Below, piece after piece: positions 6,458-40,490 of a DNA stretch of 64,000 bases. The DNA is from a virus, in IMG/VR virus record IMGVR_UViG_3300006155_000004; one strand, written 5' to 3'. The position numbers and the translations under genes are program-made. The notes beneath the pieces were generated by a model that was not told where the DNA came from, made no database searches, and worked only from the letters and a program-made list of their open reading frames with translations. The number at the start of each line of letters is the position of its first letter. Positions within the stretch are counted from its first letter, which is position 1.

Positions 6458-6514
6458 GGGGTAAGGAATCTCTTTTTTTAGTTTAAAAAATAAATCATCA
6501 GGAGGTATGAATTT

Positions 6515-7195
6515 ATGTTAGTAGAAATCATTGGAAAAAGAAACGAAGAAAGGCTTATCACTACAAGTCTTAAAATTGCTGAAAAGTTCGGCAAGGAACA
6601 CGCCCATGTCCTCAGAGATATTCGGGATATGGAATGTAGCGATGCGTTTAGAGAATCCAATTTTGGATTGTCCTCTTATAAGTCCACACAAGGAAAAGCA
6701 TTGCCAATGTACGAAGTGACAAGGGATGGGTTCACCTTGTTGGCTATGGGATATACCGGAAAAGAAGCAATGAAGTTCAAAGAGGACTACATCAACGCGT
6801 TTAACGCAATGGAAAATGAATTAAAACGCATTTACACCGAGCGTCAACAATGGAAGATAGAGCGTGACAAAGGCGTTGTTATTCGTCACATCCTCACAGA
6901 CACAATCAAGATGAAGATTGCAGACAGCCCACACAAGCGGTTTGCATATCCAAATTATACAAATCTGATTTACCGAACTTTGTTTGGAAAAACCGCAAAA
7001 GAACTTGAACAGGAATGTGGCGTAAAGGCAAGAGAAAATTTAAGGGATTATTTTACCGGAAATGCCTTGGAACAGGTACAGAGCATGGAAATGCTGGTTT
7101 CAAGCCTTATCGGGTGTGGTTGGGGATATGAAAAAATAAAAGAATTTGTATCTGAAAACTGCAAATATAAGATTGAGGAGGAAATACATGATTAA
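6515..7195 (+). CDS. Rha-family phage regulatory protein (paralogue A)
   Basis: N-terminus ITTSLKIAEKFGKEHAHVLRDIRD...MTRDGFTLLAMGYTGKEAMKFKEDYINAFNAME = Rha domain; C-terminal domain shared with 9652-10345 and 15727-16374. Confidence 0.8.
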   Translation: MLVEIIGKRNEERLITTSLKIAEKFGKEHAHVLRDIRDMECSDAFRESNFGLSSYKSTQGKALPMYEVTRDGFTLLAMGYTGKEAMKFKEDYINAFNAMENELKRIYTERQQWKIERDKGVVIRHILTDTIKMKIADSPHKRFAYPNYTNLIYRTLFGKTAKELEQECGVKARENLRDYFTGNALEQVQSMEMLVSSLIGCGWGYEKIKEFVSENCKYKIEEEIHD

Positions 7196-7355
7196 AACAA
7201 AAACCAGAGAAATCACAAAAGAATATGACCCAATCAGCGGAAATGTTCTGCGGAAAATTAAAACCAAGTCTGTAACGACGGACGATACAAACTATGTGAG
7301 CAAAGAAAATGACTATGATTCAGAAGAGCTTCCGTTTCGGGATGTGAGGTGGTAA
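7188..7355 (+). CDS. hypothetical small protein
   Basis: ATG 7188 behind GAGGAGG; 55 aa. Confidence 0.4.
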   Translation: MIKTKTREITKEYDPISGNVLRKIKTKSVTTDDTNYVSKENDYDSEELPFRDVRW

Positions 7356-7357
7356 AT

Positions 7358-7624
7358 ATGTCAGTAGCAAGAATTATTACAACGACAGAAAAGTTTGGCG
7401 AGATGGGAAAGCTAGTTGAGAGGATTGAAACGGAGGAATTTCCGGAAGAATGCGGATGCAGATGCGGAAAACAGGAAGAAAACAAATCTAAAAGCGAAGA
7501 AATCAATCAAGAATTGATAGACTCGGGGTTCCAGGTGTTTAAAAGCACCAAATTAATGTGCGAGATTTTAGAAGAAATAGGGCGAATGAAATCTTTTGGG
7601 GTTCCATGCCCGTTTTTCTGGTAA
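7358..7624 (+). CDS. hypothetical protein
   Basis: ATG 7358 behind GTGAGGTGG; 88 aa. Confidence 0.4.
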   Translation: MSVARIITTTEKFGEMGKLVERIETEEFPEECGCRCGKQEENKSKSEEINQELIDSGFQVFKSTKLMCEILEEIGRMKSFGVPCPFFW

Positions 7625-7639
7625 CTGGCGGCGATATAA

Positions 7640-8035
7640 ATGCTCGACAGCATAGAAAGCCAGATTTTTTCGCTCATAAAAGCAAAATTTCCAGAACGGG
7701 TAAAAAAGAAATACCCAGACCTAGATTTTACTACAATCGACAAATCATCCACAAAGCCAAAATTCCCGACCGTCTACATACATCTTATGGAACCGACAGA
7801 GGCAGGAGAAACGCTTGAAGGCTCATCTTTGAATGCTGTAAACGCATCGTTTCAGATTGATGTAAGCGACAACCAGAGCCAGGCAAGGGCGGATGAAGTG
7901 GCAAAAGAGATATTAAAAATCATGAAATCCATGCGGTTTTCGGCAAAACCATTACCATTCCATAACAACGTCGGGGATGTGTACCGGACAACCGCAAGAT
8001 ACCGGAGACTTATCGGAGCCAGGGACATTATATAG
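7640..8035 (+). CDS. tail completion/terminator-like protein (by position)
   Basis: 131 aa directly upstream of tail tube gene. Confidence 0.4.
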   Translation: MLDSIESQIFSLIKAKFPERVKKKYPDLDFTTIDKSSTKPKFPTVYIHLMEPTEAGETLEGSSLNAVNASFQIDVSDNQSQARADEVAKEILKIMKSMRFSAKPLPFHNNVGDVYRTTARYRRLIGARDII

Positions 8036-8070
8036 AAAGTTAACCAGAGAGCAGCAATGCTCTTATTTTT

Positions 8071-8086
8071 ATGCAAATTTTTAAGG
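8071..8086 (+). repeat. degenerate copy of post-terminator motif ATGCCCATTTTTAAA
   Basis: hairpin agagc-N6-gctct + TATTTTT, then ATGCAAATTTTTAAGG, then SD of tail tube gene. Confidence 0.5.
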
Positions 8087-8097
8087 AGGGATGACCT

Positions 8098-8574
8098 ATG
8101 GCAGCTCAAGCACTAAGCACTATAGGAGTGATTTTCGGATGGGGACTTGGTACGATGACAACCCCGCCGACAGAATTTAAACAAATAGAGGAATGCATAA
8201 GCATCGGTGGCGTAGAAGTTACACAGGACAAACTCGACGCAACCCCGCTGGAATCGAAAAGAAAAAAATATGTCGCTGGGCACGAGGACACAGGAGGCGA
8301 ACTTCAGACCGTTTTCAATAATACGGACACATTTGACGACCAGTGGGACGAAATGAAAGACGCATACAACAACAGGACAGCAGGGCAGTCCATGTGGTTT
8401 TGCGCATACCATCCGGGAAAAGAAAAAATGGCTCCGTACATAGTCGAGCCGGGATCCAGACCCAGGTCTGAATACGCAGTTGGAAACGTGTTGCAGTACA
8501 CGATCACAAACACACTGGTTGATTTGCCAGAAGAAATCCCGGCGGTCAGACCAACAGCACCAACAACTACTTAA
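8098..8574 (+). CDS. major tail (tube) protein
   Basis: 158 aa behind AAGGAGGG; immediately precedes chaperone pair with -1 slip. Confidence 0.6.
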   Translation: MAAQALSTIGVIFGWGLGTMTTPPTEFKQIEECISIGGVEVTQDKLDATPLESKRKKYVAGHEDTGGELQTVFNNTDTFDDQWDEMKDAYNNRTAGQSMWFCAYHPGKEKMAPYIVEPGSRPRSEYAVGNVLQYTITNTLVDLPEEIPAVRPTAPTTT

Positions 8575-8596
8575 CAACAGAAAGGACTCACATATT

Positions 8597-9082
8597 ATGC
8601 TGAAATTAAATGTAAAAGGAACGGAATATAATCTGAAATTCGGGTATCGGTCATTTAGGCGCGCCGGGGTTCTGAAAGAAGCGGTTGCAATGCAAAGAAG
8701 GATGCAAGAACTCGGAAAGAAAAAGAAAAAGCCGGAAGAAGAAACTGCGGAAGAAATGGAAATGCTTGAAGAAATGGAAATGCTTGAAGAAATGTTTAAT
8801 TTAAATTCAAAACTTGTTCTTGCCGCGCTGCAAAAATACCACAAAGAATTTAGGGCTGACTACAAGAACCCGGAATCTGTAAGAGAGTGCGAAGAAAAGG
8901 TGGATGACCTTCTGGATGAATACATGGACGAAGAAGGAGCGATGGACGTAGGAACAATGTTTGCAGCTCTTTTGCAGGAACTGTTTTCACAAGGTTTTTT
9001 ACCGAGGAACGGGGAGAACCCGGAGGCGAAAGAGACGAACGAACCAGATGCTGCGACGGAGACGGAGAAAACCGAGAACTAA
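8597..9082 (+). CDS. tail assembly chaperone (G-like)
   Basis: 161 aa acidic protein; contains slippery T_TTT_TTA near 3' end; -1 frame open from 8920 to 9492. Confidence 0.75.
   Translation: MLKLNVKGTEYNLKFGYRSFRRAGVLKEAVAMQRRMQELGKKKKKPEEETAEEMEMLEEMEMLEEMFNLNSKLVLAALQKYHKEFRADYKNPESVRECEEKVDDLLDEYMDEEGAMDVGTMFAALLQELFSQGFLPRNGENPEAKETNEPDAATETEKTEN
8750..8794 (+). repeat. 18-bp tandem repeat x2.5 (EEMEML)
   Basis: gaagaaatggaaatgctt at 8750 and 8768, partial at 8786. Confidence 0.85.
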
Positions 9083-9492
9083 CGTGGGAACTTTACTGTG
9101 AGGAAATACGCCCATACTGGCTCATGGTCACAAAAGGGTACGGATTTACAGTTGACGACATAGACTGGTCATGCCCGACAGACCTTGAGCCGTATGCAAA
9201 GGCGCATAATCTTGAGCTGATGGAACGCGACGCGCAGATGCACAGCATGGGGAAATACACAGAAATAGCATTCAGCGTAGTCATGGCGCATTTTGGCGCA
9301 GGTCTTGCCGGAAAAGATTCTCACGCGGAATATATCGAAAAGCCGTTCATGCAGATGGATGACCCGAACAGGGAACTTACAGAAGAAGAAATTCAGATTG
9401 AAGTCGACCGGTTCTTTGAGGATGAGCGAAGACGGCGCGAAGAATGGAAAAGAAAGAAAAGACGCGCAGAAATGCGGAATGCGGAACGGTAG
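8920..9492 (+). CDS. -1 frame extension of tail chaperone (T part of G-T fusion)
   Basis: Frame open 8920-9492, overlaps 3' 160 nt of G gene; first ATG only at 9124 with no SD. Confidence 0.65.
   Translation: MHGRRRSDGRRNNVCSSFAGTVFTRFFTEERGEPGGERDERTRCCDGDGENRELTWELYCEEIRPYWLMVTKGYGFTVDDIDWSCPTDLEPYAKAHNLELMERDAQMHSMGKYTEIAFSVVMAHFGAGLAGKDSHAEYIEKPFMQMDDPNRELTEEEIQIEVDRFFEDERRRREEWKRKKRRAEMRNAER
8995..9001 (+). promoter_or_regulatory. programmed -1 ribosomal frameshift heptamer T_TTT_TTA
   Basis: Zero frame ggT TTT TTA (QGFL); the -1 frame continues without stop to 9492. Confidence 0.7.
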
Positions 9493-9651
9493 TGCGTCAA
9501 GATCTATTGTTCTTTCAAAATACAGAATCGACGATGTGTCTTTAATAGACGACACTCAATTTATAATAGAAAAAGCAAACTTTATGCATTCTATAAAATT
9601 TATTGTAAATAAATTTTGCGAAAAAGCAAATCATCATGGAGGAATGATTTT

Positions 9652-10345
9652 ATGAATGAAATGATTGAGGAAGCAAAAAAGACACCGATTGAGATTGCAT
9701 TACAGATTGATGACGAGGGATATACCACATCAAGAAAACTTTATTTCTGGCTATATGAAAACGGCAGCCACTATGCAAAATGGCTTAAAGAAAATGTAAC
9801 AGAAAATCCGTTTGCAGAGGAAAATGAGGTTTTCGCCAATCTTGCGAAAACCTCAAAAACAGGGAGGCAGACCGACAGAGGACTACAAAATAACTGATTC
9901 ACTTGCCAAAAGAATTTCTATGGCTACCAAGTCAGGACGCGGAGAAGAAGCAAGGAACTATTTCATAGGTTGCGAACAGGCACTTGCCAAAGTTTCAGAA
10001 CAAATTCATAAAACAGAGATAGAAAGAGCAAAGGGAATAGCGGTGCGCCAGGCGCTAACAAAAGCAATTCAGCAATCGGGAGAAAATGAACGTATGCACG
10101 GACGTGCCTATTCCAATTACACAGACCACATCGTATACAAACAGGTTTTCGGGATGAAAGCAAAGGAACTGCGGGAGAAATACGGGATAGGAAATAAAGA
10201 TAATTTGAGAGACTGCTTTACAGACGAGGAATTAAAGAGTGTTCAAAACGCAGAAATGCTCATTTCAAGCCTCATGGAATACGGATGGGGATTTAACGAA
10301 ATAAAAGATTTTGTGCTGAACAAGGTAAACAGAATGATTGAATAG
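9652..10345 (+). pseudogene. AntA-type antirepressor N-domain fused to Rha-paralogue C-domain, split by +1 frame change near 9847-9859
   Basis: Frame 1 ...FAEENEVFANLAKTSKT then frame 2 GGRPTEDYKITDSLAKRISMATKSGRGEEARNYFIGCEQ (AntA signature); removing one A from A4 9847-9850 or A5 9855-9859 fuses them. Confidence 0.7.
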
Positions 10346-10368
10346 CGCCGGAATCAGGCGTTATTTTT

Positions 10369-10383
10369 ATGCCCGTTTTTAAA
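10369..10383 (+). repeat. post-terminator motif ATGCCCGTTTTTAAA
   Basis: Follows weak hairpin 10344-10362 + T-run; 22 nt upstream of ATG 10406. Confidence 0.6.
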
Positions 10384-10405
10384 TTTAAAATCAGGAGGGG
10401 AAACA

Positions 10406-10585
10406 ATGCAAGAAGCTGAAAAGATGCTCAAAACGTTAAAAAGCATTGATTGTACTTTAAAACGAATTGAGCAGTTGATTAAAACGGGAAATAAATACGA
10501 AGACATAAACAGCGTAATTCCCGGTGCTCCGTACAATAAAAAATACAAGGTTGATTGTGGGAAGTATCCTCTATCAGGAACTTAA
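10406..10585 (+). CDS. hypothetical small protein (59 aa)
   Basis: ATG behind CAGGAGGGG; TAA 10583-10585. Confidence 0.45.
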   Translation: MQEAEKMLKTLKSIDCTLKRIEQLIKTGNKYEDINSVIPGAPYNKKYKVDCGKYPLSGT

Positions 10586-10776
10586 CCAGTTATGGTAATG
10601 TTCTGGCATTTCCATAATTCCAATTTCAACCCATGCGCGACGATAAAACTCATGCTCTTCTCCTGCTTCGCAAAAAGTTTTTCGTTAACGGCATTTAGCA
10701 CTTTTTGGTGAATAGAGTGGTGGATTTCGTCGCTGTGATTACTTACATAGGATTTGAAATCTTTAAAATCTTTCAT
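10582..10776 (-). CDS. hypothetical small protein (64 aa), minus strand
   Basis: ATG 10776 behind GGAAAGGAGGTG; extended -10 TGTTATAAT upstream on minus strand. Confidence 0.5.
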   Translation of the reverse strand: MKDFKDFKSYVSNHSDEIHHSIHQKVLNAVNEKLFAKQEKSMSFIVAHGLKLELWKCQNITITG

Positions 10777-10891
10777 GAAAAACACCTCCTTTCCGAGGAG
10801 ATTATAACACAAATTTACAAAATATGCGCTTGACAAGGCAGTGATTGGTTGGCAGAGATAGACTACCGCGCGACATGGGTTCCGGTTTTTC

Positions 10892-10919
10892 TTGATTTAC
10901 CAATCTGTTGTGGTACAAT
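10892..10919 (+). promoter_or_regulatory. sigma-A-type promoter (TTGATT-16-TGgTACAAT)
   Basis: -35 10892-10897, -10 10914-10919, extended TG; 30 nt upstream of lipoprotein ATG. Confidence 0.55.
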
Positions 10920-10948
10920 ATAAAAAAACTACAAGGGAGGATAAACCG

Positions 10949-11354
10949 ATGAAGAAAAAACTTATAACACTGATACTGGCAGCGTGTGTTCTGTAGAGCG
11001 GGTGCGGAGAAGAATCGAGCAACAGTCGGGAATCGGAAACCGTTGCGGAATCAGAAAAAGACGAAAAGACAGATTCAAAAGAACCCGAAGAAGAATCTAA
11101 CCAGGATAAAAGCGGGCAAGAATCCGAAAACAAAGAAAGCAAAAAGAACAAAAAGAAGTCCAAAAAGAAAAGCAAACCAAAGAAAAAGTCAAATGATGAA
11201 CCCGAAGAAAAGTCCGACGCACAAAAGAAAGGGGGAGGAATTAGGAGAAAAGTTAAACGAAAAATTGGAATCCATTGATTGGGACGAAAATTACGAAAAG
11301 GCAGAAGAAGCCGGAAAGAAAGCGGCGGAATGGCTAAACAAATTATTTGAGTAA
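10949..11354 (+). pseudogene. K/E-rich lipoprotein gene carrying an in-frame TAG and a frameshift
   Basis: MKKKLITLILAACVL-TAG(10994)-SGCGEE (lipobox); frame changes at G5 11231-11235, G4 would give ...AQKKGEELGEKLNEKLESIDWDENYEKAEEAGKKAAEWLNKLFE. Confidence 0.65.
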
Positions 11355-11379
11355 AAATATACATAGGAGGATAAAGCAT

Positions 11380-11993
11380 ATGATGATACAGTGTCCAGAG
11401 TGCGGAAAGGAAATAAGCGATAGAGCAGAGTTTTGTCCTAATTGCGGGTTCCCAATGAGAGAATGCACAACCGCAAGCCATGTAACTGTTAGAAGCATTT
11501 TTGAAATAAATGGTGTTGCGTTTGATGTTTTGAGAGTGAAAAACAAGGCTTTTATTAAAACGGTAGCAAATGTATCAAAAAAGGTTGCGAAACTTTGTAA
11601 GTGTGAGAAAGAGAAAGCGGAAGAGGTTGTATATGGGTACTTTTTAGCCACACACGGAGATTGCATTTACGATATTGCAGAATTAAGAAACAAAATAAAT
11701 CATATAAAATCTGCGAACGGGAAAAAATTATATTGTCCATATTGCCTTAGCAGAAATATTGATTCAATGGAGACGGTTCATGAATCAGTATCAATAGGAA
11801 AGTCGGAGATCAGAAAAAGAGCGCTGTCACGAGAGCCGGAAACAAAGCTGGTAGAGCCGGAATGATTATGGCAACAGGCGGATTATGGGCGTTAACACCA
11901 AAAAAATCAGATTACAAGGAAGTGAGTAAAGGGGAAACTTCATATTATACAACTGTTACAAGGACTTGCGCGGATTGCGGTTCTGCATTTTGA
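11380..11993 (+). pseudogene. zinc-ribbon protein split by frameshift at A5 11814-11818
   Basis: N-terminus CPECG...CPNCG; CPYC at about aa 130 pairs with C-terminal CADCG found only in ORF 11862-11993; A6 would fuse the frames. Confidence 0.6.
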
Positions 11994-12060
11994 TCATATT
12001 CTCATGTTGACAGGAGTTTATCTTGGATGTTTGTTGTGAGGTTTTTAACATCAATATTGA

Positions 12061-12089
12061 ATGACAAATAAAATATGCTGTGATATAAT
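12061..12089 (+). promoter_or_regulatory. sigma-A-type promoter (ATGACA-17-TGaTATAAT)
   Basis: -35 12061-12066, -10 12084-12089 with extended TG. Confidence 0.6.
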
Positions 12090-12118
12090 GAATGAAAATG
12101 CAAAGGAGGATTTTATCA

Positions 12119-12697
12119 ATGAAATCAAAAACAAAGAAATTTCTTTCCGCAATTTTAACCCTGGCCGTTTTGTTTTCCGCGCTTATTCCGATTCATGCAC
12201 GGGCGGCGAAAGAAGATGGAAGCAAAAAGAATCCGTATTCTGCATACAAGTCATGCAAAACGGAAGTGTATGGCGCTTCGTATGCGGGAAAGTTTAAGAT
12301 CAGGCTTGTTGATTATAAAGACGGAAAAGAAGCGCTGAAATTTCTAAAAGAAAACGGGGTCAAAAAGAACCCGGGGAAGTCAAAGGAATATGTATACCTG
12401 AAATTCAAAATCAAATGCATATCAGCCGATGAAGAAGTTCCGGCAGACTTGATTTTGAATGAATATTCGAGTTTCTTTGACTCAAAATGCAAGAAACAGT
12501 TAAAAGCAGAATTGATTCCGGTTGGCGATGGGAACAAAGAACTTTCATATAATACGATGATTTCGCCCGGCGAAACTGTTATTTGCTCAATTGCACTTTC
12601 GGTTAAATCTGGAAGCACGCCGATTACATACAGAATTTCAGCCGGATATGATGAAGATTATAATGAAATAGAGAAATGGTTTACAACAAAGAAGTAA
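12119..12697 (+). CDS. secreted protein with signal peptide (Ig-like/DUF4352-like, superinfection-exclusion candidate)
   Basis: MKSKTKKFLSAILTLAVLFSALIPIHARA-AKE signal peptide; beta-rich body; own promoter and terminator. Confidence 0.55.
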   Translation: MKSKTKKFLSAILTLAVLFSALIPIHARAAKEDGSKKNPYSAYKSCKTEVYGASYAGKFKIRLVDYKDGKEALKFLKENGVKKNPGKSKEYVYLKFKIKCISADEEVPADLILNEYSSFFDSKCKKQLKAELIPVGDGNKELSYNTMISPGETVICSIALSVKSGSTPITYRISAGYDEDYNEIEKWFTTKK

Positions 12698-12726
12698 TAA
12701 GCGATTGGATTCTTTGTAAATTAATT

Positions 12727-12760
12727 TGGCGGGGAGAAAACCCCGCCGTCTTTATAAATT
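12727..12760 (+). terminator. rho-independent terminator
   Basis: GGCGGGG-agaaaa-CCCCGCC then gtctttataaatttt. Confidence 0.75.
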
Positions 12761-12835
12761 TTATTTTGCAACATTAAATGAATATCTTTTTCTTTGTTGT
12801 ACAACAGAAACAAACTATAAAGGAGAAGCTCTAAA

Positions 12836-14014
12836 ATGAACAAAAAATTTTACGAAAGAACATGGTTTGTCGTGATGTGCTGCATAATCTTTCCGCCTGC
12901 CGGAATATTTCTGATATGGAAAAACAAAAAGCCAGACAGGAAAAACTCCAGAATCTTTATCAGCGCGATTCTTTGCTTGTGGACGTTGGCTATTGTTATG
13001 GGCGGTTCGGATGGAGAAAATTTGTCTAACGAAAGCAGAGAACAGCAAGAAGAAACCACAAAGACCGAAGCAGAAAACGAGAAAAGCGACAGACAGGAAG
13101 TAAAAGAAAAAGGCAAAAAGGCAAGGGAAAACAGGGGCAGAAAGGCAAAAAAAGAAAAGCCGAACAAAAAATTAAAGCGCGCAATAGAATCTATCGGAAT
13201 GGACTATTCGCGTGTAAAGAATATAAAGAATCTAAGCGACTGGTCGTCTGGCAAACGATATAGTTTCGTATATGACGGATTCAGATACATAGTATATGAA
13301 CTTGGGAACGGCGAGATAGAATCCGTAAATACAGACGTTAAAAGGGCAAAAATTTACGAGAGAGGATATAAGTCGCTAAACTATAAAGATTTTGAGCCAG
13401 ATGCAAACGTTGTAGAACCCTTGCAGACAGATGCTATTGAAAGGCTTTCTAAATACATCAAGGGAGAAACTTCCATAAAAAGCAAAATAGGCTCAATGAT
13501 GTATTCCAGAATATATGATTACTATTCGATTTCTGGGGAAGTTAAGGCGAAAAATGCTGTCAGTAAAAAGGATTTTACTTTTACGGTTGACTATATCGTA
13601 AAAAACGGAAGTTATGAGTGCGTGTATTTGGCGATTGACGGAGAGGTTGCTTTTGGTTCAGACCAGACACCAGAACTTCCTAAAGAGGAATTGGAGCAGG
13701 AGGACAGTTCGAAAAACGCAGAATCAATCATACTATCCGATGGGAAAGAGGGGAAATACGGTCAATACGATTCGTTTGACGGAGAACCATATTTGAGGTA
13801 TCATGTTCCGGTTGGAAATTATAAGGTCAAGTGCAATATTCGAGGCGGATTTTACATTGAAACCATTGAACTTCACAAAGAAGATGGATGGGACACAGCA
13901 ACCACTATACAGCAGATAAATATGTCAGAGGGAGAAGTAACGGAGATTGTAATAGAGGACGGTCAGTGCATTAGCCTTATTATAAACACAGAGATAGAAC
14001 TGATTAAACAATAA
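12836..14014 (+). CDS. membrane-anchored protein with large extracytoplasmic domain
   Basis: Two N-terminal TM segments (WFVVMCCIIFPPAGIFLIW, IFISAILCLWTLAIVMGG), K/E linker, 270-aa C-domain. Confidence 0.55.
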   Translation: MNKKFYERTWFVVMCCIIFPPAGIFLIWKNKKPDRKNSRIFISAILCLWTLAIVMGGSDGENLSNESREQQEETTKTEAENEKSDRQEVKEKGKKARENRGRKAKKEKPNKKLKRAIESIGMDYSRVKNIKNLSDWSSGKRYSFVYDGFRYIVYELGNGEIESVNTDVKRAKIYERGYKSLNYKDFEPDANVVEPLQTDAIERLSKYIKGETSIKSKIGSMMYSRIYDYYSISGEVKAKNAVSKKDFTFTVDYIVKNGSYECVYLAIDGEVAFGSDQTPELPKEELEQEDSSKNAESIILSDGKEGKYGQYDSFDGEPYLRYHVPVGNYKVKCNIRGGFYIETIELHKEDGWDTATTIQQINMSEGEVTEIVIEDGQCISLIINTEIELIKQ

Positions 14015-14023
14015 GATGCATTA

Positions 14024-14051
14024 AGGGATAGCGATTTTGCTGTCCCTTTTA
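14024..14051 (+). terminator. rho-independent terminator
   Basis: agggatagc-gatttt-gctgtccct followed by TTTT. Confidence 0.65.
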
Positions 14052-14069
14052 AAATTTTTAATTTTCCTC

Positions 14070-14098
14070 TTGACTTTTGTTTAAACAGATGTTATATT
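14070..14098 (+). promoter_or_regulatory. sigma-A-type promoter (TTGACT-17-TATATT)
   Basis: -35 14070-14075, -10 14093-14098. Confidence 0.6.
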
Positions 14099-14128
14099 TT
14101 GTTTATACAAAAGAAAGGAGATGATAAG

Positions 14129-14305
14129 TTGTCGCCTAGAACTGGCAGACCAACAAACAATCCCAAAGAAAATTATACAGGGATTAGGTTATCTGACGAT
14201 GAACTTAAAAAGTTGAAGTTTTGCATGGAAAAAACTGGAATGACAAAAACAGGCGTGATACGTGCGGGGATTGAACTTGTTTATGAACAGATAACAAAGA
14301 AATAA
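14129..14305 (+). CDS. ribbon-helix-helix (CopG/MobC-like) DNA-binding protein
   Basis: TTG behind AAAGGAG; SPRTGRPTNNPKENYTGIRLSDDELKKLKFCMEKTGMTKTGVIRAGIE pattern. Confidence 0.45.
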   Translation: MSPRTGRPTNNPKENYTGIRLSDDELKKLKFCMEKTGMTKTGVIRAGIELVYEQITKK

Positions 14306-14425
14306 AGCGGTAACGCTCCGACCAAAGAACATACCGCTTTAAACCAAAACTCCCATAAGAAGCTGACGCATACAGTATAACAGCCTCTTGTGGGAATGTC
14401 AAACATTTTCATAGGAGGTTTTTAT

Positions 14426-15037
14426 ATGGATGATTTAATGATTAAAAATGTGGATGTATTTGGCGATAGCATAATGGCTGTAAAAGACAAAGACGGGAAC
14501 ATATGGGCCGGTGTTAGCTACTTTTGTCGTGCGCTTGGAATGGATAAAAAGCAGAAAGACAATCAGGTAGAGAGAGTGCAGCAAGACGACGTATTAAAGA
14601 GGGGTGCCGGTAAATTTCCGGCAGGGGTATTCGACCCAGCAAATGAAGCAGTTGCGCTTCGCATTGACTTCGTTCCAATATGGCTTACAAAAATTAGAAT
14701 AACTCCAAAAATGAAAAATGAACGCCCGGAACTTGCGGAGAAACTACTGAATTACCAATTGAAAGCCAAAGACATCCTTGCCGACGCTTTCCTCCCAAAC
14801 AGGGAGCCGGAACAAACCCAGGTATGCAATCCATCCGAAATCCAGTTAGGAGAACTTGCAAGCTATCTTAAAATCATGGACAAGGTAGCGAACCGCCAGA
14901 ATCTCGCATCTTATAAGATTGCAGAGAACTTCAAGAGAGTGTCGGAGCAGTTCGGCGTACAGCTTTCAGATGATTTTGTGAACGTGCCGGAATATGTGCA
15001 GCAGACCCTTAAACTTGAGGGAGGTGCGGCAAAATGA
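14426..15037 (+). CDS. antirepressor with P22_AR N-terminal-like domain
   Basis: VDVFGDSIMAVKDKDGNIWAGVSYFCRALGMDKKQKDNQVERVQQDDVL...PIWLTKI resembles P22 Ant N-domain (memory). Confidence 0.55.
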   Translation: MDDLMIKNVDVFGDSIMAVKDKDGNIWAGVSYFCRALGMDKKQKDNQVERVQQDDVLKRGAGKFPAGVFDPANEAVALRIDFVPIWLTKIRITPKMKNERPELAEKLLNYQLKAKDILADAFLPNREPEQTQVCNPSEIQLGELASYLKIMDKVANRQNLASYKIAENFKRVSEQFGVQLSDDFVNVPEYVQQTLKLEGGAAK

Positions 15038-15213
15038 CCGAAAAACAGAAAAAGGAATACGCAGACGCTCTGAAAGACAGAACAAAGGAGTTTTTAGACC
15101 GCATAGGCACTGACGACGATGAGGGGCAGCGCATTATCAAGCTGATTTACTTCTTTGCCCGCAGCGGATTTAAGGAGTATGGGGCTGGAAGAAAGGCGGT
15201 GCAGCATGAGTAA
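15034..15213 (+). CDS. hypothetical small protein (59 aa)
   Basis: ATGA overlap with previous stop; TAA 15211-15213. Confidence 0.4.
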   Translation: MTEKQKKEYADALKDRTKEFLDRIGTDDDEGQRIIKLIYFFARSGFKEYGAGRKAVQHE

Positions 15214-15454
15214 AATCAAAGAAACCATAACCGCCGTGTCTGCCGGGAATGAACCGGGAGCGGTCAGGATCAAGAGAGAAGAACAAGAACGGATGCCAGA
15301 ATGGTATTTTGCTACGGCTATGAAATGCGCTGTTGTAATCGCCGCGATAGCTGCCGCAACTGCAATTATCATATTTGCAGACTTATGGAAAGTTCTTGCT
15401 TTGATTGTAGCTGGGATTTTTTATACTTTGATTTACTTTGCGTTGCAGAATTAG
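15206..15454 (+). CDS. small membrane protein
   Basis: Two TM segments (AVVIAAIAAATAIIIF, LALIVAGIFYTLIYF); the G of its TAG stop is the first G of a G9 tract. Confidence 0.5.
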   Translation: MSKIKETITAVSAGNEPGAVRIKREEQERMPEWYFATAMKCAVVIAAIAAATAIIIFADLWKVLALIVAGIFYTLIYFALQN

Positions 15455-15462
15455 GGGGGGGG
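15454..15462 (+). repeat. orphan G9 homopolymer
   Basis: ttaGGGGGGGGGtg; directly abuts stop codon; in-frame GTG at 15462 and ATG at 15498 downstream. Confidence 0.9.
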
Positions 15463-15497
15463 TGCACAGAGCGAAACAAATAGAGAGCGAACATACA

Positions 15498-15632
15498 ATG
15501 AAATGGAGAAAAGAGCAGATTAAGAATATGGTGTATGGGATGAACGCAAACTGTTGCGTCATAAACATGATATACGGATTTGCCAGAAAATGTTTTGAGA
15601 TATCCAGAGAAAAGGCAAAAGAAAAATTATAA
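15498..15632 (+). CDS. hypothetical small protein (44 aa; may start at GTG 15462)
   Basis: Same frame open from 15438 through the G tract; weak SD for ATG. Confidence 0.35.
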   Translation: MKWRKEQIKNMVYGMNANCCVINMIYGFARKCFEISREKAKEKL

Positions 15633-15648
15633 AGTGGTTATTGCAAAA

Positions 15649-15676
15649 GGCGTCTTCTTGGGAAGACGTCTTTTTT
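15649..15676 (+). terminator. rho-independent terminator
   Basis: GGCGTCTTC-ttgg-GAAGACGTC + TTTTTT. Confidence 0.85.
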
Positions 15677-15691
15677 ATGCCCATTTTTAAA
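15677..15691 (+). repeat. post-terminator motif ATGCCCATTTTTAAA
   Basis: Immediately after terminator T-run; 35 nt upstream of Rha paralogue C. Confidence 0.65.
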
Positions 15692-15726
15692 TTATCGAAA
15701 TAAAAATCATAGAGGAGGAAAATGAT

Positions 15727-16374
15727 ATGTTGGTAGAAATGAGGAAGCTCAACAAAAGAGAAATCAATGTTGTCACAAGCCTTGATGTGGCTGAAACATT
15801 TGAAAAGGAACATAAGAACGTATTGAGGGATATAAGAGAATTACCTTGTAGCGAAGAATTTCGACTGCTCAATTTTGTGCCGTCGGAATATCTAAATCAG
15901 CAGAACCACAAGCAGCCAATGTATTACATTACAAGAGACGGATTTACTCTTTTAGTCATGGGTTACACCGGCGAAAAGGCTATGAAATTTAAGGAGGCTT
16001 ACATAAGACAGTTCAATGCTATGGAGGCTACACTGCAAGGAAAGCTGATTGAGCGAGAAAAAGGAATCGTAGTCCGGCAAGCATTTACGAAAGCGTTAAA
16101 AGAAAGCGGAGAGAACGAAAGAACGCACGGACACGCTTATTCGCTTTACACGGACTTGATTTACAAGGCAGTTTTCGGGAAGAACGCCAAACAGCTAAGA
16201 GAGGAATATGGAATAGCAAAACAGGACAATCTAATAGATTGCTTTGCCCAGGAAGAACTCGCAAAGGTAAAATCTGTTGAAATGGTTGTCAGCGGTCTTG
16301 TAGATTGTGGTTGGGGATATGATGATGTGAAGGGTTTTATAACCAACAGCACAAGAAAGTTGATTGCAGCTTAA
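15727..16374 (+). CDS. Rha-family phage regulatory protein (paralogue C)
   Basis: VVTSLDVAETFEKEHKNVLRDIRE...ITRDGFTLLVMGYTGEKAMKFKEAYIRQFNAME; leader and first codons (MLVE) parallel 6515 gene. Confidence 0.8.
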   Translation: MLVEMRKLNKREINVVTSLDVAETFEKEHKNVLRDIRELPCSEEFRLLNFVPSEYLNQQNHKQPMYYITRDGFTLLVMGYTGEKAMKFKEAYIRQFNAMEATLQGKLIEREKGIVVRQAFTKALKESGENERTHGHAYSLYTDLIYKAVFGKNAKQLREEYGIAKQDNLIDCFAQEELAKVKSVEMVVSGLVDCGWGYDDVKGFITNSTRKLIAA

Positions 16375-16405
16375 TATATAATATTGAAAAAAGGATTCTT
16401 TTTTT

Positions 16406-16420
16406 GCGCCCATTTTTAAA
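16406..16420 (+). repeat. post-terminator motif GCGCCCATTTTTAAA
   Basis: After A/T hairpin aaaaaag-gatt-ctttttt; 17 nt upstream of ATG 16438. Confidence 0.6.
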
Positions 16421-16437
16421 AATCGGAGGTATTGACC

Positions 16438-16569
16438 ATGAAAAGTGAAAGAAAAAATAAAGAAGAACGACTTGAGGATGCATTGCTGGAATACATTGAA
16501 CGCCACGACAAAGATGCGCGGCCAGACACATTAGAAACAATCCCGGCTGCGGCAATGGCGTTTGTTTAG
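16438..16569 (+). CDS. hypothetical small protein (43 aa)
   Basis: ATG behind TCGGAGGT; TAG 16567-16569. Confidence 0.4.
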   Translation: MKSERKNKEERLEDALLEYIERHDKDARPDTLETIPAAAMAFV

Positions 16570-16579
16570 CTTTGGAAAA

Positions 16580-16744
16580 TTATTTAGTTTTCTGCTCGTT
16601 TAATTCAGATAATTTGTCATAGACATTTTGCATAAATTTTGCCACGTCTTTTCTGTTTTGGTCATTTGCTGCATGTGGCCAGCTTTGCGGTTTTGCGACG
16701 GTAATGTCCTTGACATATTCGAGCAATACAGAATTATCAATCAC
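16580..16744 (-). CDS. hypothetical small protein (54 aa), minus strand
   Basis: GTG start behind AAAGGAGGTGATACC on minus strand; ends TAA at 16580. Confidence 0.45.
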   Translation of the reverse strand: MIDNSVLLEYVKDITVAKPQSWPHAANDQNRKDVAKFMQNVYDKLSELNEQKTK

Positions 16745-16841
16745 GGTATCACCTCCTTTGGGAGAATTATACCACAAACAACAGGTAAGCACCCAATCTA
16801 TGGGTGCTATTTTTATTATGCTTTGTAAAGGCGGTGAAGGC

Positions 16842-19800
16842 ATGGCAGAAATAGATTCCCTTGAGATTCAAATAACAGCGAGCAGCAGAGCGGCGGCAAC
16901 GGCAATAGATGCGCTCAACAGAAAGCTTGGGACGCTTGCAAACTCCCTTAATTTTGATGCGCCTGGTCTGGAAAAACTGGATAAAATCCACGGAGACAAC
17001 ATAAAAAACCTTGGAACAGGTCTAAACGCACTCGGAAAAGGACTGCAAAGCATACAGTCCATCCGAAGGATAGATTTCGGAAAAATTGCAACCGATGTGC
17101 GAAGGCTGTCAAACATCCAGTCCGGGAATCTCCAAACACTCGGAAACGCTATGCGCCCGCTTGCAGATGGAATCAATGCGCTGTCAAAAGCAAAGGTTGA
17201 CAATTCCAACCTTACCAATCTGATAAACAGCCTTACAAGACTGTCAAATGCGAACCTAAGCAACCTTAACGGGGCAAACTTCACGCAGCTTGGAACTTCC
17301 ATAAAGGATTTTGCAAATGCCGTATCGGGCGCAAACAAGGTGGAGCAATCCACAATCGCTATGACAAACGCGGTTGCAAAGCTGGCAGCAGCCGGAAAAA
17401 ACATAGGAAAAGTCACCGGAGCATTGCCGCACCTTGCAAACAGCCTGAAAGCCTTTATGAACACCATGCATGAAGCGCCGCAGGTAGCAAATGAGACAAT
17501 CACATTTGCACAGGCAATCGGGACACTGGCAAGTGCAGGGGACAAAACCAAGGCAACCGCAAGCAATTTAAAACAGCTTGGTACGGAACTGAAAAACTTT
17601 ATGCAGACCATGTCCGCGGCACCGAATGTCAGCGACAGTGTTATCAGAATGACAACCGCACTTTCTGGACTTGTTAATCAGGGCGGGAGGGTGACGCTTT
17701 CGTCAAACTCCCTAAGCAGCAGCTTTAGCCGGGTATCTGGAATGTCTGGAAGGCTCAGGACAAACTTTCGGAATCTGACAGGCTCCATGTCCGGTCTGAG
17801 CGGAGCGACCTCAAAAACGGCGTCCAGCCTTAAAGGATTTTTACGGCAGCTCATGTCAGCAACCGGTGTGTATTTCAGCATATACGGCGCAATCCGGGGA
17901 CTGAAATCTGCAATCGATATTTCGTCCGACCTGACAGAAGTACAGAACGTTGTGGACGTGGCGTTTGGAGATATGGCATACAAAGTCGAGGAATTTGCAA
18001 AGGTTTCCGTAAAAGATTTTGGAATGTCGGAACTTACCACAAAAGAAATAGCCGGACGGTTCCAGGCAATGTCAACCGCAATCGGTGTAAGTGCAGATAA
18101 AATCGGACAGGCAAACACGTTTTTAAGCGGGCAGACAAAAGGATATGTTGCGGTTTCCGATTCGATGGCAGACGTTTCTATTAACCTGACGAAGTTAGCC
18201 GCTGATATGGCATCGTTTTACAACGTCGAACAGACCGACGTAGCCAAAAGCCTTGAATCCATATTCACGGGAACCACGGCCCCGCTGCGAAAATATGGTC
18301 TTGACCTGACACAGGCAACTCTTTCCGAGTGGGCATTGAAACAGGGACTTGACGCTGATATAAGTTCCATGTCTCAGGCCGAAAAGACCATGCTGCGGTA
18401 TCAGTATGTCCTGTCAAATACAAAAGCAGCACAGGGCGACTTCGCGCGTACAGCAGACTCGTGGGCTAATCAAACACGTGTTCTGGCACAGCAGTTTGAA
18501 ATACTGGCTTCTGTAATCGGCGGCGTTTTTATTAACGCTTTTAAGCCGGTTGTCAAGACACTAAATGCCGTTATGGCAAAAGTAATATCATTTGCAAAAA
18601 CCGTAGCAGACGCACTTGGCACAATTTTCGGCTGGACATTTGAGGTAAATCCAGGCGGAATAACAAATGATTTTGGCGACATGTCATCTGGTATCGAAGA
18701 TGTTGCAGACAGTGCAGGAGATGCGGCAGATAAAGTAAAAGACACGACAGACGAAGTAAAAGACCTGAAAGCGAATTTGCAGGGAATTGATAAGCTACAT
18801 GTCATAAGCCTTGATAAAGACAAAGACAAAGGAAAGGACAAGGGAACCGGAAAAGACAAGGACAAGGGAGACGGAATTGGCGGAATAGGCGGCTTAGATA
18901 CAAACCTGTTTGAAACCAAGAGTGTATTGAAAAAATATAAAAGCAGCATTGACACACTGTACAAACTGGGAGAGTACATAGGAAAAACTCTGACAAAAGC
19001 ATTAAACAGCATAAACTGGGATAAAGTATACGCTGCGGCAGACAATTTCGGGATTGGTCTGGCGCAGTTTTTAAATGGGCTGATTTCGCCAGAACTGTTT
19101 GCTGCGGTTGGTCGGACGATAGCCGGGGCGTTGAATACCGCACTCCATGTGCTTGACAATTTCGGAGCAACTTTTGACTGGAAAAATCTTGGAGATTCGC
19201 TTTCTGCTGGACTGGTTGCGTTCTTGAAAGGCATTGACTGGGAAACCGCGCTGTCCGCTGCTGCAAACTGGGGAACCGGAATTGCGACGACTCTGAATAG
19301 TTTTATATCTCCAGAATCATTCGGGCTTGTCGGAGAATCAATAGCAAAGGCTTTAAACACAGCGGTGCAATTCGCGCTTAGTTTCGGACAAGAATTTGAC
19401 TGGACAAATTTTGGAGAATCTCTTGCTACGGGAGTAAACGAATTCTTTAGAAACTTTAATTTTGAAAATCTGGCAGAGGCAATTAACGTGTGGGCAAAAG
19501 GAATTCTTGACACCATGATAACATTTCTGGACAAAACAGAATGGTACATGATTGGAGAAAGAATTGGAACATTTCTTGCGGAATTAGACTTTGCAGAAAT
19601 AGGAGGGAAAATCGGGCAAGCAATATGGAAAGCTATAAACGCGGGGATAGAGCTGTTTAAGGGGATGTTTTCCAAAGCACCGATAGAAGCGGCAATAATA
19701 GCCGCTTTTGCAGCACTAAAATTAACGGGAGCAGGCTCGATTATAGCAGGAGGGATAGCAAAGGCGCTATCTTCCACGAAAGCAAAAATATCCACAGCAA

Positions 19801-23723: not shown

Positions 23724-24137
23724 GTGATGCGATTGCCGGGAAAATACAAAGGCTGGGACATTAAAATGCCGAAAGGCATTGTCCCAGCCAAATTTATTAT
23801 GGGATTCAAAGAAACACCTGACGCTCTTATGGATTTAGACCCACGACGGACAGGGGAGGGACTTTTGATTAGAAATGTGCTTCCTTATGTGGCAACCACA
23901 ATAGATATAACGTTTGTCCCAATGTCCATGTCGGAAAAAATGGAGCTGCAAGAATATTTTCCGCCGTCTGTATATGTAAAAGCTCCGGTAACATACTGGA
24001 ACGAAAAGCACAACGATTATTTTACAGGAGATTTTTATATACCGGAAATACCGTGGGAAAGATATGTGGACTGCTATAACGAACCTATCTACATAGCTAC
24101 TCCAATACAGCTCATAGGGTATGGTGAAAAACGATGA
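23724..24137 (+). CDS. distal tail protein-like (by position)
   Basis: 137 aa directly after TMP, overlaps next gene. Confidence 0.4.
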   Translation: MMRLPGKYKGWDIKMPKGIVPAKFIMGFKETPDALMDLDPRRTGEGLLIRNVLPYVATTIDITFVPMSMSEKMELQEYFPPSVYVKAPVTYWNEKHNDYFTGDFYIPEIPWERYVDCYNEPIYIATPIQLIGYGEKR

Positions 24138-34343: not shown

Positions 34344-34721
34344 CTACAATATGAACTTTTCAAAGAAATCACAAATCAATTCTTTTTCGTCGGCCGGGAG
34401 CTTGCTATATTCAACAACTATTTTAGCAAATCTCTTATCTGCCAATGCGATTTTCAGTACATTGTCCATAAATTCTGCATCTGCACCAGAACCATTCTTT
34501 TCATCAGTTAAATCAGACTTTCCTATACGAAAATAATCAGCCAATTTTTGAATTTTTCCAAGGCTCGGAAACGACTTTCCGCTGCACCACATATTTAATG
34601 TAGGCGGATTTTCTCCGATAGCCTCAGCCACTTCTTTTTGTGTCTTCTGATTTAATGATATATATCTGTTTAAATTCTTAGCAAACACTTTCTTTTGTTC
34701 GTCATTTTCTATTTTAAACAC
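34344..34721 (-). CDS. cI-like XRE-family repressor without peptidase domain
   Basis: 125 aa; HTH KNLNRYISLNQKTQKEVAEAIGENPPTLNMWCSGKSFPSLGKIQKLADYF; divergent from cro-like gene; no S24 domain. Confidence 0.8.
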   Translation of the reverse strand: MFKIENDEQKKVFAKNLNRYISLNQKTQKEVAEAIGENPPTLNMWCSGKSFPSLGKIQKLADYFRIGKSDLTDEKNGSGADAEFMDNVLKIALADKRFAKIVVEYSKLPADEKELICDFFEKFIL

Positions 34722-40306: not shown

Positions 40307-40465
40307 ATGTCAGAAATACAATGTTGCGGTCAATGCCGCCATCACAAACCCATGGCGCAAGATGAATTTATGTGCGACAACGAAAACAGCGAGGGCTACG
40401 GATTATCAACAGCTTATGATGATTGCTGTGAGGACGGATTTGAGGAGGCAGAGGAAAATAAATAA
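40307..40465 (+). CDS. small Cys-rich acidic protein (52 aa)
   Basis: ATG behind CAGGAGGA; MSEIQCCGQCRHH... Confidence 0.4.
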   Translation: MSEIQCCGQCRHHKPMAQDEFMCDNENSEGYGLSTAYDDCCEDGFEEAEENK

Positions 40466-40490
40466 AGCAGAAAAAAGACAATTTCATGGA

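Follow-up and report, generated by a model that had tools for sequence, protein, structure and literature searches.

The 64,000-nt window analysed here comes from the viral record IMGVR_UViG_3300006155_000004 and covers part of a contig of at least 107 kb; it contains a block of accessory genes between the genes for the tail assembly chaperones G and GT and the gene for the tape measure protein (TMP). As judged by comparison with the sequences of relatives, this junction is a hypervariable accessory, or "moron", locus. It is probable that the locus belongs to a lineage of uncultured siphophages with relatives in Lachnospiraceae genome bins, that it has grown by nested addition of DNA, and that it combines insulated transcription units with an antirepressor switch. 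Moron acquisition has otherwise mostly been inferred from single examples; the relatives described below, with 0.4 to 7.3 kb at one and the same junction, show the growth of a moron cluster stepwise, with junction relics and reused boundaries.

Delimitation of the island

Close relatives were found by a search with the TMP (61–77% identity over the full length) and their contexts were then fetched; loci fetched from relatives carry L numbers, and the borders and cassette matches were set by blastn against L018, L021, L022, L024 and L026. This is the synteny comparison that had been advised in a preliminary description of the window, and it returned sharp borders against L018, which is free of the island. 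On the left side, window positions 7630-9497 correspond to L018 7770-9618 at 95.7% identity, and on the right side positions 16810-19744 correspond to L018 9971-12903 at 91.7%, while the proteins of the two phages are identical at 99% (major tail protein), 94% (G), 95% (T, the −1 frame extension of GT) and 77% (TMP) of residues. The GT product ends at 9492, because the slippery heptamer and the open −1 frame are both conserved, among relatives whose G proteins are down to 27% identical. Together with the phrog_167 match of the TMP, this upholds the limits of 9492 and 16842 that had been proposed for the two flanking genes.

Three properties of morons in the sense of Juhala et al. (2000) are present in the island. 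It is extra DNA between genes that are adjacent in close relatives, its base composition differs (GC of 0.365–0.415 inside, against 0.43–0.49 in the flanking tail genes), and it has promoters and terminators of its own among the predicted sites. Public gene calls place 19 open reading frames (ORFs) in the island, about 16 of them credible, so that the block does hold many genes, as had been described, but more than the 14 or so that had been counted. The coordinates of the features are collected in Table 1.

Table 1. Features of the island, its flanks and related elements in the window (positions of the 64-kb window; RBS, ribosome-binding site; SD, Shine-Dalgarno sequence; aa, amino acids)
Feature	Position	Strand	Details
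Element before the major tail gene: hairpin, U-run, TTTTTATGCAAATTTTTAAGGAGG	8040-8097	+	near-invariant in six genomes
Major tail protein	8098-8574	+	phrog_158
Tail assembly chaperone G	8597-9082	+	weak Phage_TAC_12 and phrog_183 matches; 94% identical to G of L018 and L024
Slippery heptamer T_TTT_TTA	8995-9001	+	in G frame; heptamer and −1 geometry kept in 7 of 7 relatives checked
−1 frame T extension of GT	open 8920-9492	+	runs across the G stop codon; T ORF 92–97% identical in L018, L021, L024, L026
Accessory island relative to island-free L018	9498-16809	.	7312 bp in place of 352 bp
AntA-type gene: AntA N-domain, C-domain common to Rha paralogs	9652-10345	+	1-nt insertion near 9828
Terminator hairpin and motif copy TTTTTATGCCCGTTTTTAAA	10340-10383	+	−12.7 kcal/mol, z = −2.3; junction recurs in L024 and L021
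59-aa ORF	10406-10585	+	85% identical to L024 9053-9232; no family match
64-aa ORF	10582-10776	−	77% identical to minus-strand ORFs in L024 and L021; leader conserved
Degenerate pre-TMP junction relic (RBS and first TMP codons)	10815-10868	+	TTGGCAGAGATAGACTACC versus ATGGCAGAAATAGATTCCC
Promoter-like site	10892-10919	+	TG-extended −10; before lipoprotein pseudogene
Lipoprotein pseudogene	ATG 10950, to 11354	+	in-frame TAG 10995-10997, then frameshift in G5 run near 11230
Zinc-ribbon protein, 161 aa	11380-11865	+	Zn_ribbon_3 E=1.1e-9; phrog_2546 E=8e-15
Promoter-like site ATGACA-17-TGaTATAAT	12061-12089	+	TG-extended −10; before 192-aa gene
Secreted beta-sandwich protein (putative), 192 aa	12119-12697	+	AGGAGG upstream; AF2 model, pLDDT 72
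GC-rich bidirectional terminator hairpin	12727-12748	.	−16 kcal/mol, z = −3; also left end of the unit shared with L027
Membrane protein, 392 aa	12836-14014	+	two N-terminal transmembrane helices, disordered linker, three beta-rich ectodomains; AF2 model, pLDDT 80
Intrinsic terminator after membrane protein gene	14023-14048	+	−17.8 kcal/mol, z = −4.25, U-rich tail
Promoter TTGACT-17-TGtTATATT	from 14070	+	conserved in six loci
Operator-like repeats TTTTGTTTAAAC and TTTTGTTTATAC	14075-14086; 14097-14108	+	in spacer and just after −10
RHH-type repressor gene, 58 aa	14129-14305	+	phrog_876 (repressor) E=4e-16
Predicted antisense RNA gene	14292-14402	−	−35 TTGACA 14402-14397, 17-nt spacer, −10 TATACT 14379-14374
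Leader switch (predicted)	14347-14419	+	A about 14347-14362, B 14383-14399, C 14403-14419 (holds SD AGGAGG)
P22-type antirepressor (Ant)	14426-15037	+	P22_AR_N PF10547 E=6e-13, above gathering score; phrog_524 E=1e-24
Three small ORFs: 59 aa, 82 aa with C-terminal transmembrane segments, 56 aa	15034-15632	+	L012/L013 gene calls
Strong intrinsic terminator and motif copy	15648-15691	+	−17.4 kcal/mol, z = −4.3
Rha-family gene, 215 aa	15727-16374	+	PF09669 E=9e-35, 119.5 bits against a cutoff of 29.9; phrog_2657 E=1e-65
Weak A/U hairpin and motif copy (16401-16420)	from 16386	+	
43-aa ORF	16438-16569	+	
54-aa ORF, GTG start	16580-16744	−	AAAGGAGGTG and candidate TGgTATAAT just upstream (16750-16775)
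Live junction: terminator-like hairpin, degenerate motif, TMP RBS	16785-16841	+	
Tape measure protein (TMP), 2291 aa	16842-23717	+	phrog_167 E=1e-118; SLT domain
HTH_3 (CI/Cro-like) protein, 125 aa	34344-34721	−	just after lysis genes, low-GC region 33-35 kb

The same junction is occupied differently in each close relative. From the T stop to the TMP start, L018 has 386 bp with one small ORF; L024 has 1.4 kb with an intact 230-aa AntA gene, a 59-aa ORF and a minus-strand 67-aa ORF; L022 has 1.3 kb with two unknown genes, its AntA gene being placed after the TMP gene instead; L021 has 4.3 kb with T5orf172, TM2, small ORFs and Bro-N/ORF6C; and L026 has 7.2 kb with Rha, Bro-N, Zn-ribbon, Bro-N/ORF6C and others. 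The preliminary description had named a block shared by all close relatives as a finding that would speak against an accessory island. This was looked at, and since the relatives do not share the block, with only 352 bp in L018 and different cargo in the others, the island reading stands. G, T and TMP are directly adjacent in distant relatives with a major tail protein 75–80% identical, which are IMG/VR contigs and Lachnospiraceae, Roseburia and Eubacterium genome bins, and cargo similar to that of the window is placed after the TMP gene in L029, L033 and L034. A metagenome scan with the T protein retrieved mostly distant phages (T 35–47% identical) and gives no size distribution for close relatives; these distant phages have a gene with an endolysin-like domain or a GIY-YIG endonuclease near the TMP gene, and no moron island.

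Probable growth of the island

Evidence on how the island may have arisen comes from L024. Homology between this locus and the window extends to 10815 and resumes at 16842, and the window can be described as an L024-like left module followed by a further 6.0 kb. A segment of the junction is directly duplicated (10770-10868 and 16738-16861), and the two minus-strand genes, at 10582-10776 and 16580-16744, have homologous leaders. The junction is thus present twice, as a dead and a live copy on either side of the 6 kb missing from L024, an arrangement that would be expected if DNA had been added in a nested way where the TMP gene begins. In the window, the relic (10849) and the minus-gene leader are as far apart as this leader and the live junction are in L024. 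A clearer relic is found in L021 at 7373, where GGTGGTGA...ATGGCGGAAATAGATTC is followed by a stop a few codons on, and the relic at L026 4334 is similar to that of L021. Beyond the junction duplication, no terminal repeats or att-like sites flank the island. It is proposed that the 5' edge of the TMP gene received new DNA in repeated events, each of which would leave behind a copy of the old junction, made up of the minus-gene leader, the hairpin, the RBS and the first TMP codons.

Cassettes may also have been exchanged through short boundaries that were used more than once. One such boundary consists of a hairpin, a U-run and the motif TTTTTATGCCCRTTTTTAAA; the motif has four matches in the window against 0.10 expected, all confined to the region of 8-17 kb, and the element recurs at the cassette ends of L021, L024 and L026, while each of the six genomes has it in front of the major tail gene. 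The terminator sequence at 15623-15687 is 91% identical to the end segment of the L021 island and 84% identical to L026 8564-8642, and the promoter region at 14068-14150 matches L021 at 85%; in L021 and L026 these promoter and terminator sequences frame different cargo. Movement of whole cassettes is illustrated by the AntA cassette that follows the TMP gene in L022, which is 92% identical in amino acids and 84% in nucleotides while the TMPs are only 61% identical, and shuffling within genes by the N-domains of AntA, Rha and T5orf172, each of which is joined to one common C-domain. The genome encodes a RecT-type recombinase (annealing protein) at 44530-45345, which makes exchange through short homologies plausible. 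In the proposed scheme, the swapping of cassettes would make use of a promoter on the one hand and a terminator with the conserved AU-rich 20-mer on the other, and the RecT-type recombinase of the phage could recombine such short homologies.

A second cassette insertion or deletion was observed at window positions 6459-7184, where an Rha gene (6515-7195) is found in the midst of the head-tail connector genes; the corresponding site in L018 and L024 is 128 bp long. The closest match of this Rha protein is the product of the first island gene of L026 (71% amino acid identity).

The RHH-antirepressor unit and its predicted switch

One part of the island is a transferable unit formed by the 392-aa membrane protein, a small ribbon-helix-helix (RHH) protein and a P22-type antirepressor. 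Window positions 12729-14506 match L027 3846-5615 at 89% identity (blastn) in a different context, with an RHH protein that is 100% identical and an 82-aa ORF that is 88% identical, and the same trio of genes also follows the TMP gene in L029. The RHH assignment made earlier is supported by phrog_876 and by the homolog in L029, which carries PF01402 RHH_1; against Pfam the protein itself gives weak NikA and MobC RHH matches and no Arc match, and a search against PDB sequences gave no match. The antirepressor likewise bears out the earlier label through its P22_AR_N domain. Searches for family matches of the three small ORFs that follow it returned none, and the transmembrane segments of one of them agree with the small membrane protein that had been reported.

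Several features suggest that the expression of this unit is controlled from within. The operator-like repeats of about 10 nt change in parallel between loci, from TTGTTTAWAC in the window to TTGTGTAC in L021 and CTTGTACG in L033, the pattern expected of RHH operator sub-sites. On the opposite strand, the predicted antisense transcript would run from about 14367 to about 14292, some 75 nt in all, with two stem-loops and a U-run. Its promoter is of the sigma-A type, and the TTGAxx-17-TATAxT geometry is present in five of the five homologous modules (window 14292-14425, L027 5408-5550, L033 12574-12715, L034 12595-12740 and L029 11589-11740), with RNAs of 71–84 nt that differ in sequence and fold with z = −2.5 to −6.1. 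For the antisense terminator, per-sequence folds were relied on, since its sequences stood out of register in the RNAalifold alignment. An Rfam search of 7000-18000 at E≤1 gave no match, to sar or to any other family.

The antirepressor leader can adopt two pairings. The hairpin of segments B and C has a free energy of −26.1 kcal/mol (z = −7.1), and RNAalifold gives it 15 pairs, four of them with compensatory changes; the alternative helix of A and B forms in truncated leaders of all five loci (z = −5.4 to −7.8), and the antisense RNA is complementary to segment A. An antisense promoter and mutually exclusive leader helices, one of them sequestering the RBS, are marks of countertranscript attenuation or sequestration, and both are predicted here from sequence and structure. 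The conserved repeats, the antisense promoter and terminator and the leader with its alternative pairings lend support to the term "self-regulated" that had been applied to the island, in so far as the RHH-antirepressor module is concerned.

In the circuit proposed, the RHH protein would repress its own promoter through the two repeats flanking the −10. The antisense RNA would pair with segment A of the leader, leaving segment B free to sequester the SD of the antirepressor gene in a terminator-like hairpin, and the antirepressor would be off. Without the antisense RNA, the A:B helix would form first and the antirepressor would be translated, which could then inactivate a CI-type repressor. 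The HTH_3 protein encoded at 34344-34721 is a candidate phage repressor and a possible target. Membrane protein, RHH protein and antirepressor together would make up a transferable unit working like the immI region of P22.

A wider reading is offered tentatively, with doubt slightly outweighing belief: in a large family of uncultured siphophages of Lachnospiraceae, both junctions flanking the TMP gene may serve as dedicated "cargo bays", with a recurring core formed, beside envelope proteins, by an undescribed antirepressor switch of three layers (RHH autorepressor, antisense RNA of about 75 nt, and A:B/B:C leader that toggles sequestration of the SD). If true, this would be a Gram-positive and mechanistically distinct counterpart of P22 immI-sieA as well as a new regulatory RNA family. 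The predicted circuit could control prophage induction and prophage cross-talk in Lachnospiraceae, a dominant and poorly studied group of the human gut.

Other cargo genes

Two cargo genes are broken, and they may be understood as decayed cargo. The lesion of the AntA-type gene is one extra G, as seen in an alignment with the intact 230-aa AntA of L024 and L022, and past the frameshift the protein is 96% identical to that of L024 and 92% to that of L022. An intact AntA domain (PF08346) is absent from the window, where it is split over two frames with both halves below the gathering score, and is present in L024 and L022. What had been designated an AntA-Rha hybrid is an AntA N-domain with the C-domain shared by the Rha paralogs, in a gene that is broken in this phage. 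The lipoprotein gene was called a pseudogene in the preliminary description, and the amber codon and the frameshift both bear this out. It reads MKKKLITLILAACVL-TAG-SGCGEE, with the TAG replacing the residue before the lipobox SGC, and the segment with the RBS and signal peptide is 87% identical to L027 2593-2666. Recoding of the stop codon was considered and rejected, as the 2291-aa TMP and other genes are intact and a second lesion is present; the window holds no tRNA genes.

The remaining products that had been listed are recovered as well. The zinc-ribbon protein matches Zn_ribbon_3, and the Rha-family protein scores above the gathering threshold of PF09669; paralogs that also match the Phage_pRha domain are encoded at 6515-7195 and 37837-38484, and the Rha-type DNA-binding gene of the island would be a further cassette with paralogs elsewhere in the genome. 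The N-terminus of the 192-aa protein appears by eye to be a Sec signal peptide. Its model resembles the Firmicute beta-sandwich lipoproteins YcdA, YjhA, 3qfg and 5bxg (Foldseek probability 1.0, target-normalised TM-score 0.29–0.58), and the label "Ig-like" is reasonable. The large membrane-anchored protein corresponds to the 392-aa protein with its two transmembrane helices, of which 53 homologs were found; some adjoin RHH-Ant in L027 and L029, and the one in L031 lies in an ordinary bacterial chromosomal neighbourhood, which suggests capture from a host, as for HK97 gp15 and YebO. The 192-aa and 392-aa proteins may be regarded as candidates for superinfection exclusion or surface modification.

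Both of the minus-strand genes that had been noticed are present as ORFs. Upstream of the first (about 10777-10815) lie a candidate TG-extended −10 and a AAAGGAGGTG RBS, similar in kind to those of the second. A side observation is that in both leaders (10777-10815 and 16745-16775) an anti-SD CUCC can pair with the SD GGAGG, which could be a translational control element, or else the promoter call could be wrong.

Predicted transcription units and proposed late read-through

The promoters reported at 10892, 12061 and 14070 were all recovered by the promoter scan, and what supports them is their position and, for 14070, the conservation in six loci. The terminators reported at 12727, 14024 and 15649 also reappear, folding at −16 to −18 kcal/mol with z = −3 to −4.3 (at 12727, 14023 and 15648), and further terminator-like hairpins of the island lie at 10340, 14382 and 16785. 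In our own scan, six of the about eight clean plus-strand intergenic terminator-like hairpins of the 33-kb structural region fall in the island. Hairpins before the TMP gene are found in other loci too, as in L018 (−24.7 kcal/mol, z = −7.1, with a U-run and then the TMP RBS) and L021 (−22.2 kcal/mol), and a conserved hairpin precedes the major tail gene in all six genomes, L018 included.

These hairpins bear on the question, raised earlier, of how the TMP gene is transcribed behind a terminator-rich block. The hairpins do lie in the path, but because the pre-TMP hairpin is present in the island-free L018 as well, read-through of terminators appears ancestral to the late operon and would not be a difficulty that came with the island. 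The island would consist of separate transcription units insulated by terminators, and late transcription would have to pass about six terminator-like hairpins to reach the TMP gene, either by antitermination or by leaky termination that tunes gene dosage. Such ancestral read-through would make the junction tolerant of insertions, and the junction may tolerate added DNA because a terminator and a self-contained RBS were already there. For the P22-like phage L, antitermination and partial termination have both been discussed as options (PMC8022706). When 52-64 kb of the window were searched with Pfam and PHROG, neither an antiterminator nor a sigma factor or late activator was found. That hairpins resembling terminators precede the major tail and TMP genes, even without an island, bears on the dosage of tail genes and on the role of terminators within operons.

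The repeated 20-mer had been put forward as another route by which the TMP gene could be transcribed. As a late promoter it was rejected: the motif is unlikely to be a promoter because it ends in or abuts the SD of the next gene, for example TTTTTAAGGAGG before the major tail gene, and its restriction to 8-17 kb was a further reason for the rejection.

The element at 8040-8097 is kept even in L022, where the major tail protein is 34% identical, and its stem in L024 has a compensatory change; attenuation, stabilisation of the mRNA or enhancement of translation are conceivable roles. Also noted, at 23750-23792 between the TMP stop and a DUF6711 gene, was a hairpin of high stability (−27 kcal/mol) with a T-rich tract after it.

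Relation to known systems

The term "moron" was coined for HK97 gene 15, whose place is between the chaperone and TMP genes (Juhala et al. 2000; Cumby et al. 2012; reviewed in PMC3594210), and an HNH gene stands between chaperone and tmp in Cluster O mycobacteriophages (PMC4351075). The rule given in the preliminary description, that the TMP gene normally follows G/GT directly, must thus be qualified, since a gene in between is not unprecedented. The island resembles HK97 gene 15 in its junction, in being extra DNA that relatives lack and in having promoters and terminators of its own (predicted here), and the 392-aa protein, with its chromosomal homolog, recalls gp15 as a membrane protein captured from a host gene (YebO family). 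It differs in that one small gene is found there and about 16 genes in about six transcription units, built in layers, are found here; the two share no sequence similarity, the host here is Gram-positive, and exclusion by gp15 was shown experimentally whereas the island is known from sequence alone. Cluster O phages likewise have a mobile gene at this junction that is present in some close relatives and absent in others, but it is a single gene of the homing-endonuclease type, with no regulatory circuit and no envelope cargo.

A close parallel to the RHH-antirepressor unit is the immI/sieA region of P22. Both lie inside the late operon and are highly variable among relatives, with largely independent expression in P22; in both a small gene for an RHH repressor (here putative) stands ahead of a P22_AR_N antirepressor gene, an antisense RNA of small size (here predicted) comes from the repressor-ant intergenic region, a membrane protein gene is adjacent (sieA in P22) and late transcription must cross the region. 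The P22 region, however, lies before the tailspike gene of a podovirus, and it includes a Mnt-like second repressor for which the island showed no counterpart: upstream of 14070 no divergent Mnt-type ORF was found, the space holding the terminator of the membrane protein gene. The RHH protein of the island has no Arc Pfam match, and the predicted RNA is not homologous to sar, has no Rfam match and does not lie over the ant RBS; it would act through the alternative-pairing leader instead. The proposed switch would thus have the same outcome as arc-sar-ant with no homology in sequence.

In its logic the proposed switch matches the countertranscript control of Gram-positive plasmids. The RHH protein CopG of pMV158 works alongside RNAII, and pT181, pIP501 and pAMbeta1 use attenuation by a countertranscript. 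The likeness consists in a small RHH autorepressor, an antisense RNA encoded between the repressor and the controlled gene, and leader helices that exclude each other, with a U-run behind the one that serves as terminator or sequestor hairpin. The plasmids, in contrast, control replication initiators and not an antirepressor, there is no homology, and the mechanism here is a predicted one.

The DNA-binding cargo belongs to the multi-copy Bro-N, KilA-N, Rha and AntA families of phages and baculoviruses, which were reportedly treated by Iyer, Koonin and Aravind in 2002. As in those families, there are several paralogs per genome, their number and position vary between close relatives, and N- and C-domains are shuffled; no mechanism of mobility is established for the families, while the cassettes of the island share boundaries of terminator and motif. 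Morons as such have precedents, and what is distinct here is the size, the layered build, the junction relics, the setting in uncultured phages of gut Firmicutes and the predicted RHH/antisense/leader circuit.

Weighing of the interpretation

Some observations count against a nested, insulated moron locus with an antirepressor switch. The TMP-start relic of the window itself is weak, with 5 mismatches in 20 positions, and is backed mainly by its position. Promoters, terminators and the antisense RNA are all predictions from sequence, and the promoter scan was overall not enriched (37 found against 38 expected from shuffles); the candidate −10s of both minus-strand genes stand only about 7 nt from their RBS. 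The predicted antisense RNA misses the SD of the antirepressor gene, and its effect must therefore be indirect. The model of the 392-aa protein has no structural analogue (Foldseek against PDB, query-normalised TM-score ≤0.18), and no family known for defence or exclusion was matched by the envelope proteins; PADLOC, run on 10 proteins of the island, gave 0 matches. Finally, no integrase was seen in the 64-kb window, and a temperate lifestyle is for this reason inferred only from the CI-like HTH gene and from relatives inside long bacterial contigs.

This last point is the basis of an unlikely alternative, that the phage is effectively virulent and the island genes are early or middle functions of host takeover or anti-prophage action in the lytic cycle, such as the induction of resident prophages by antirepressors or the regulation of its own programme, and not morons expressed by a lysogen. 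Apart from the missing integrase, it would explain why six genes of the Ant/Rha/ORF6 type are spread over the structural and early regions, more than simple immunity needs. A CI-like HTH_3 gene on the minus strand in a switch-like region of low GC after the lysis genes argues against it, and so do relatives of the major tail protein on contigs of up to 1.67 Mb in Lachnospiraceae genome bins, which suggest prophages. The predicted RHH and antisense circuit, moreover, would be built to keep the antirepressor off, which is sensible for a prophage, and the window in which the integrase was sought covers no more than 64 kb, whereas the contig measures at least 107 kb. Insertion in one step of a discrete mobile element, be it a transposon, an integrative element or a phage satellite, would account for the sharp borders against L018 and for the duplicated junction 10770-10868/16738-16861, which resembles a target duplication, and an unrelated DDE transposase at 46024-47505 shows that insertion sequences (IS) can enter this phage. 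It is nevertheless very improbable: the island ORFs include no transposase, integrase or recombinase, terminal inverted repeats are absent, parts of the island occur separately in other contexts, and the intermediate states of relatives (only the left 1.3 kb in L024, the left part with different cargo in L021) require several events.

It is still less probable that the genes are lineage-specific tail or assembly factors proper to the late operon, as their position inside the tail module, the late-gene strand of nearly all of them and the protein with an endolysin-like domain between T and TMP in distant relatives, plausibly tail-associated, might lead one to think; the close relative L018 does without all of them, two are pseudogenes, their domains are those of DNA-binding regulators and exported proteins, and terminators and promoter-like sites separate the units. 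An assembly chimera of phage and non-phage reads would be conceivable for a metagenome source with an island whose composition differs from that of its flanks, but its probability is negligible. The island sequence is matched at 100% identity over the whole region in independent JGI and Logan contigs from different samples, for which reason it is not taken as a chimera, and the neighbouring major tail gene is carried by 14 contigs, 10 of which are 50-200 kb long. Samples with this phage include JGI 3300006098 and ERR2497919, and its longest contigs measure 107-111 kb. A hypervariable moron locus that grew in layers remains the reading that we prefer.

Genome context and related phages

Coding in the window is nearly all on the plus strand, with structural genes at 1-32 kb, an endolysin at 32.5 kb and then the early and replication genes. 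Megablast of the island against INPHARED phages gave no match, and tblastn of the major tail protein against the same collection gave only 30–36% identity, to unannotated gut phages, with no cultured relative; a search of IMG/VR returned only a 4.3-kb fragment of the phage and no homolog of the 392-aa protein.

Two more antirepressor-type genes lie in the early region, an ORF6N/ORF6C gene at 35449-36156 and the third Rha gene at 37837-38484. The DDE transposase ORF at 46024-47505 on the minus strand (493 aa; DDE_Tnp_1_6, E=9e-6), in a patch of the early region with a GC of 0.50 and a reversed AT skew, probably marks an IS element that has entered the genome of the phage. The HNH (phrog_3377, E=8e-66) and GIY-YIG-like genes of the early region, at 40362-41123 and 60835-61428, are a further sign of a genome rich in mobile genes.

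Among the distant phages, a common human-gut group of about 58 kb (L048 11111-16103; also L047, L059, L062, L066 and others) has a TMP region that is split by a GIY-YIG/NUMOD1 homing-endonuclease gene into ORFs of 400 aa and 870 aa, and a gene with an endolysin-like domain (ELLD) lies between T and TMP in these phages. L010, a contig of a Roseburia genome bin, has two major tail protein genes (10001-10456 and 11846-12298) that lie 1.8 kb apart, each copy being about 76% identical to the query.

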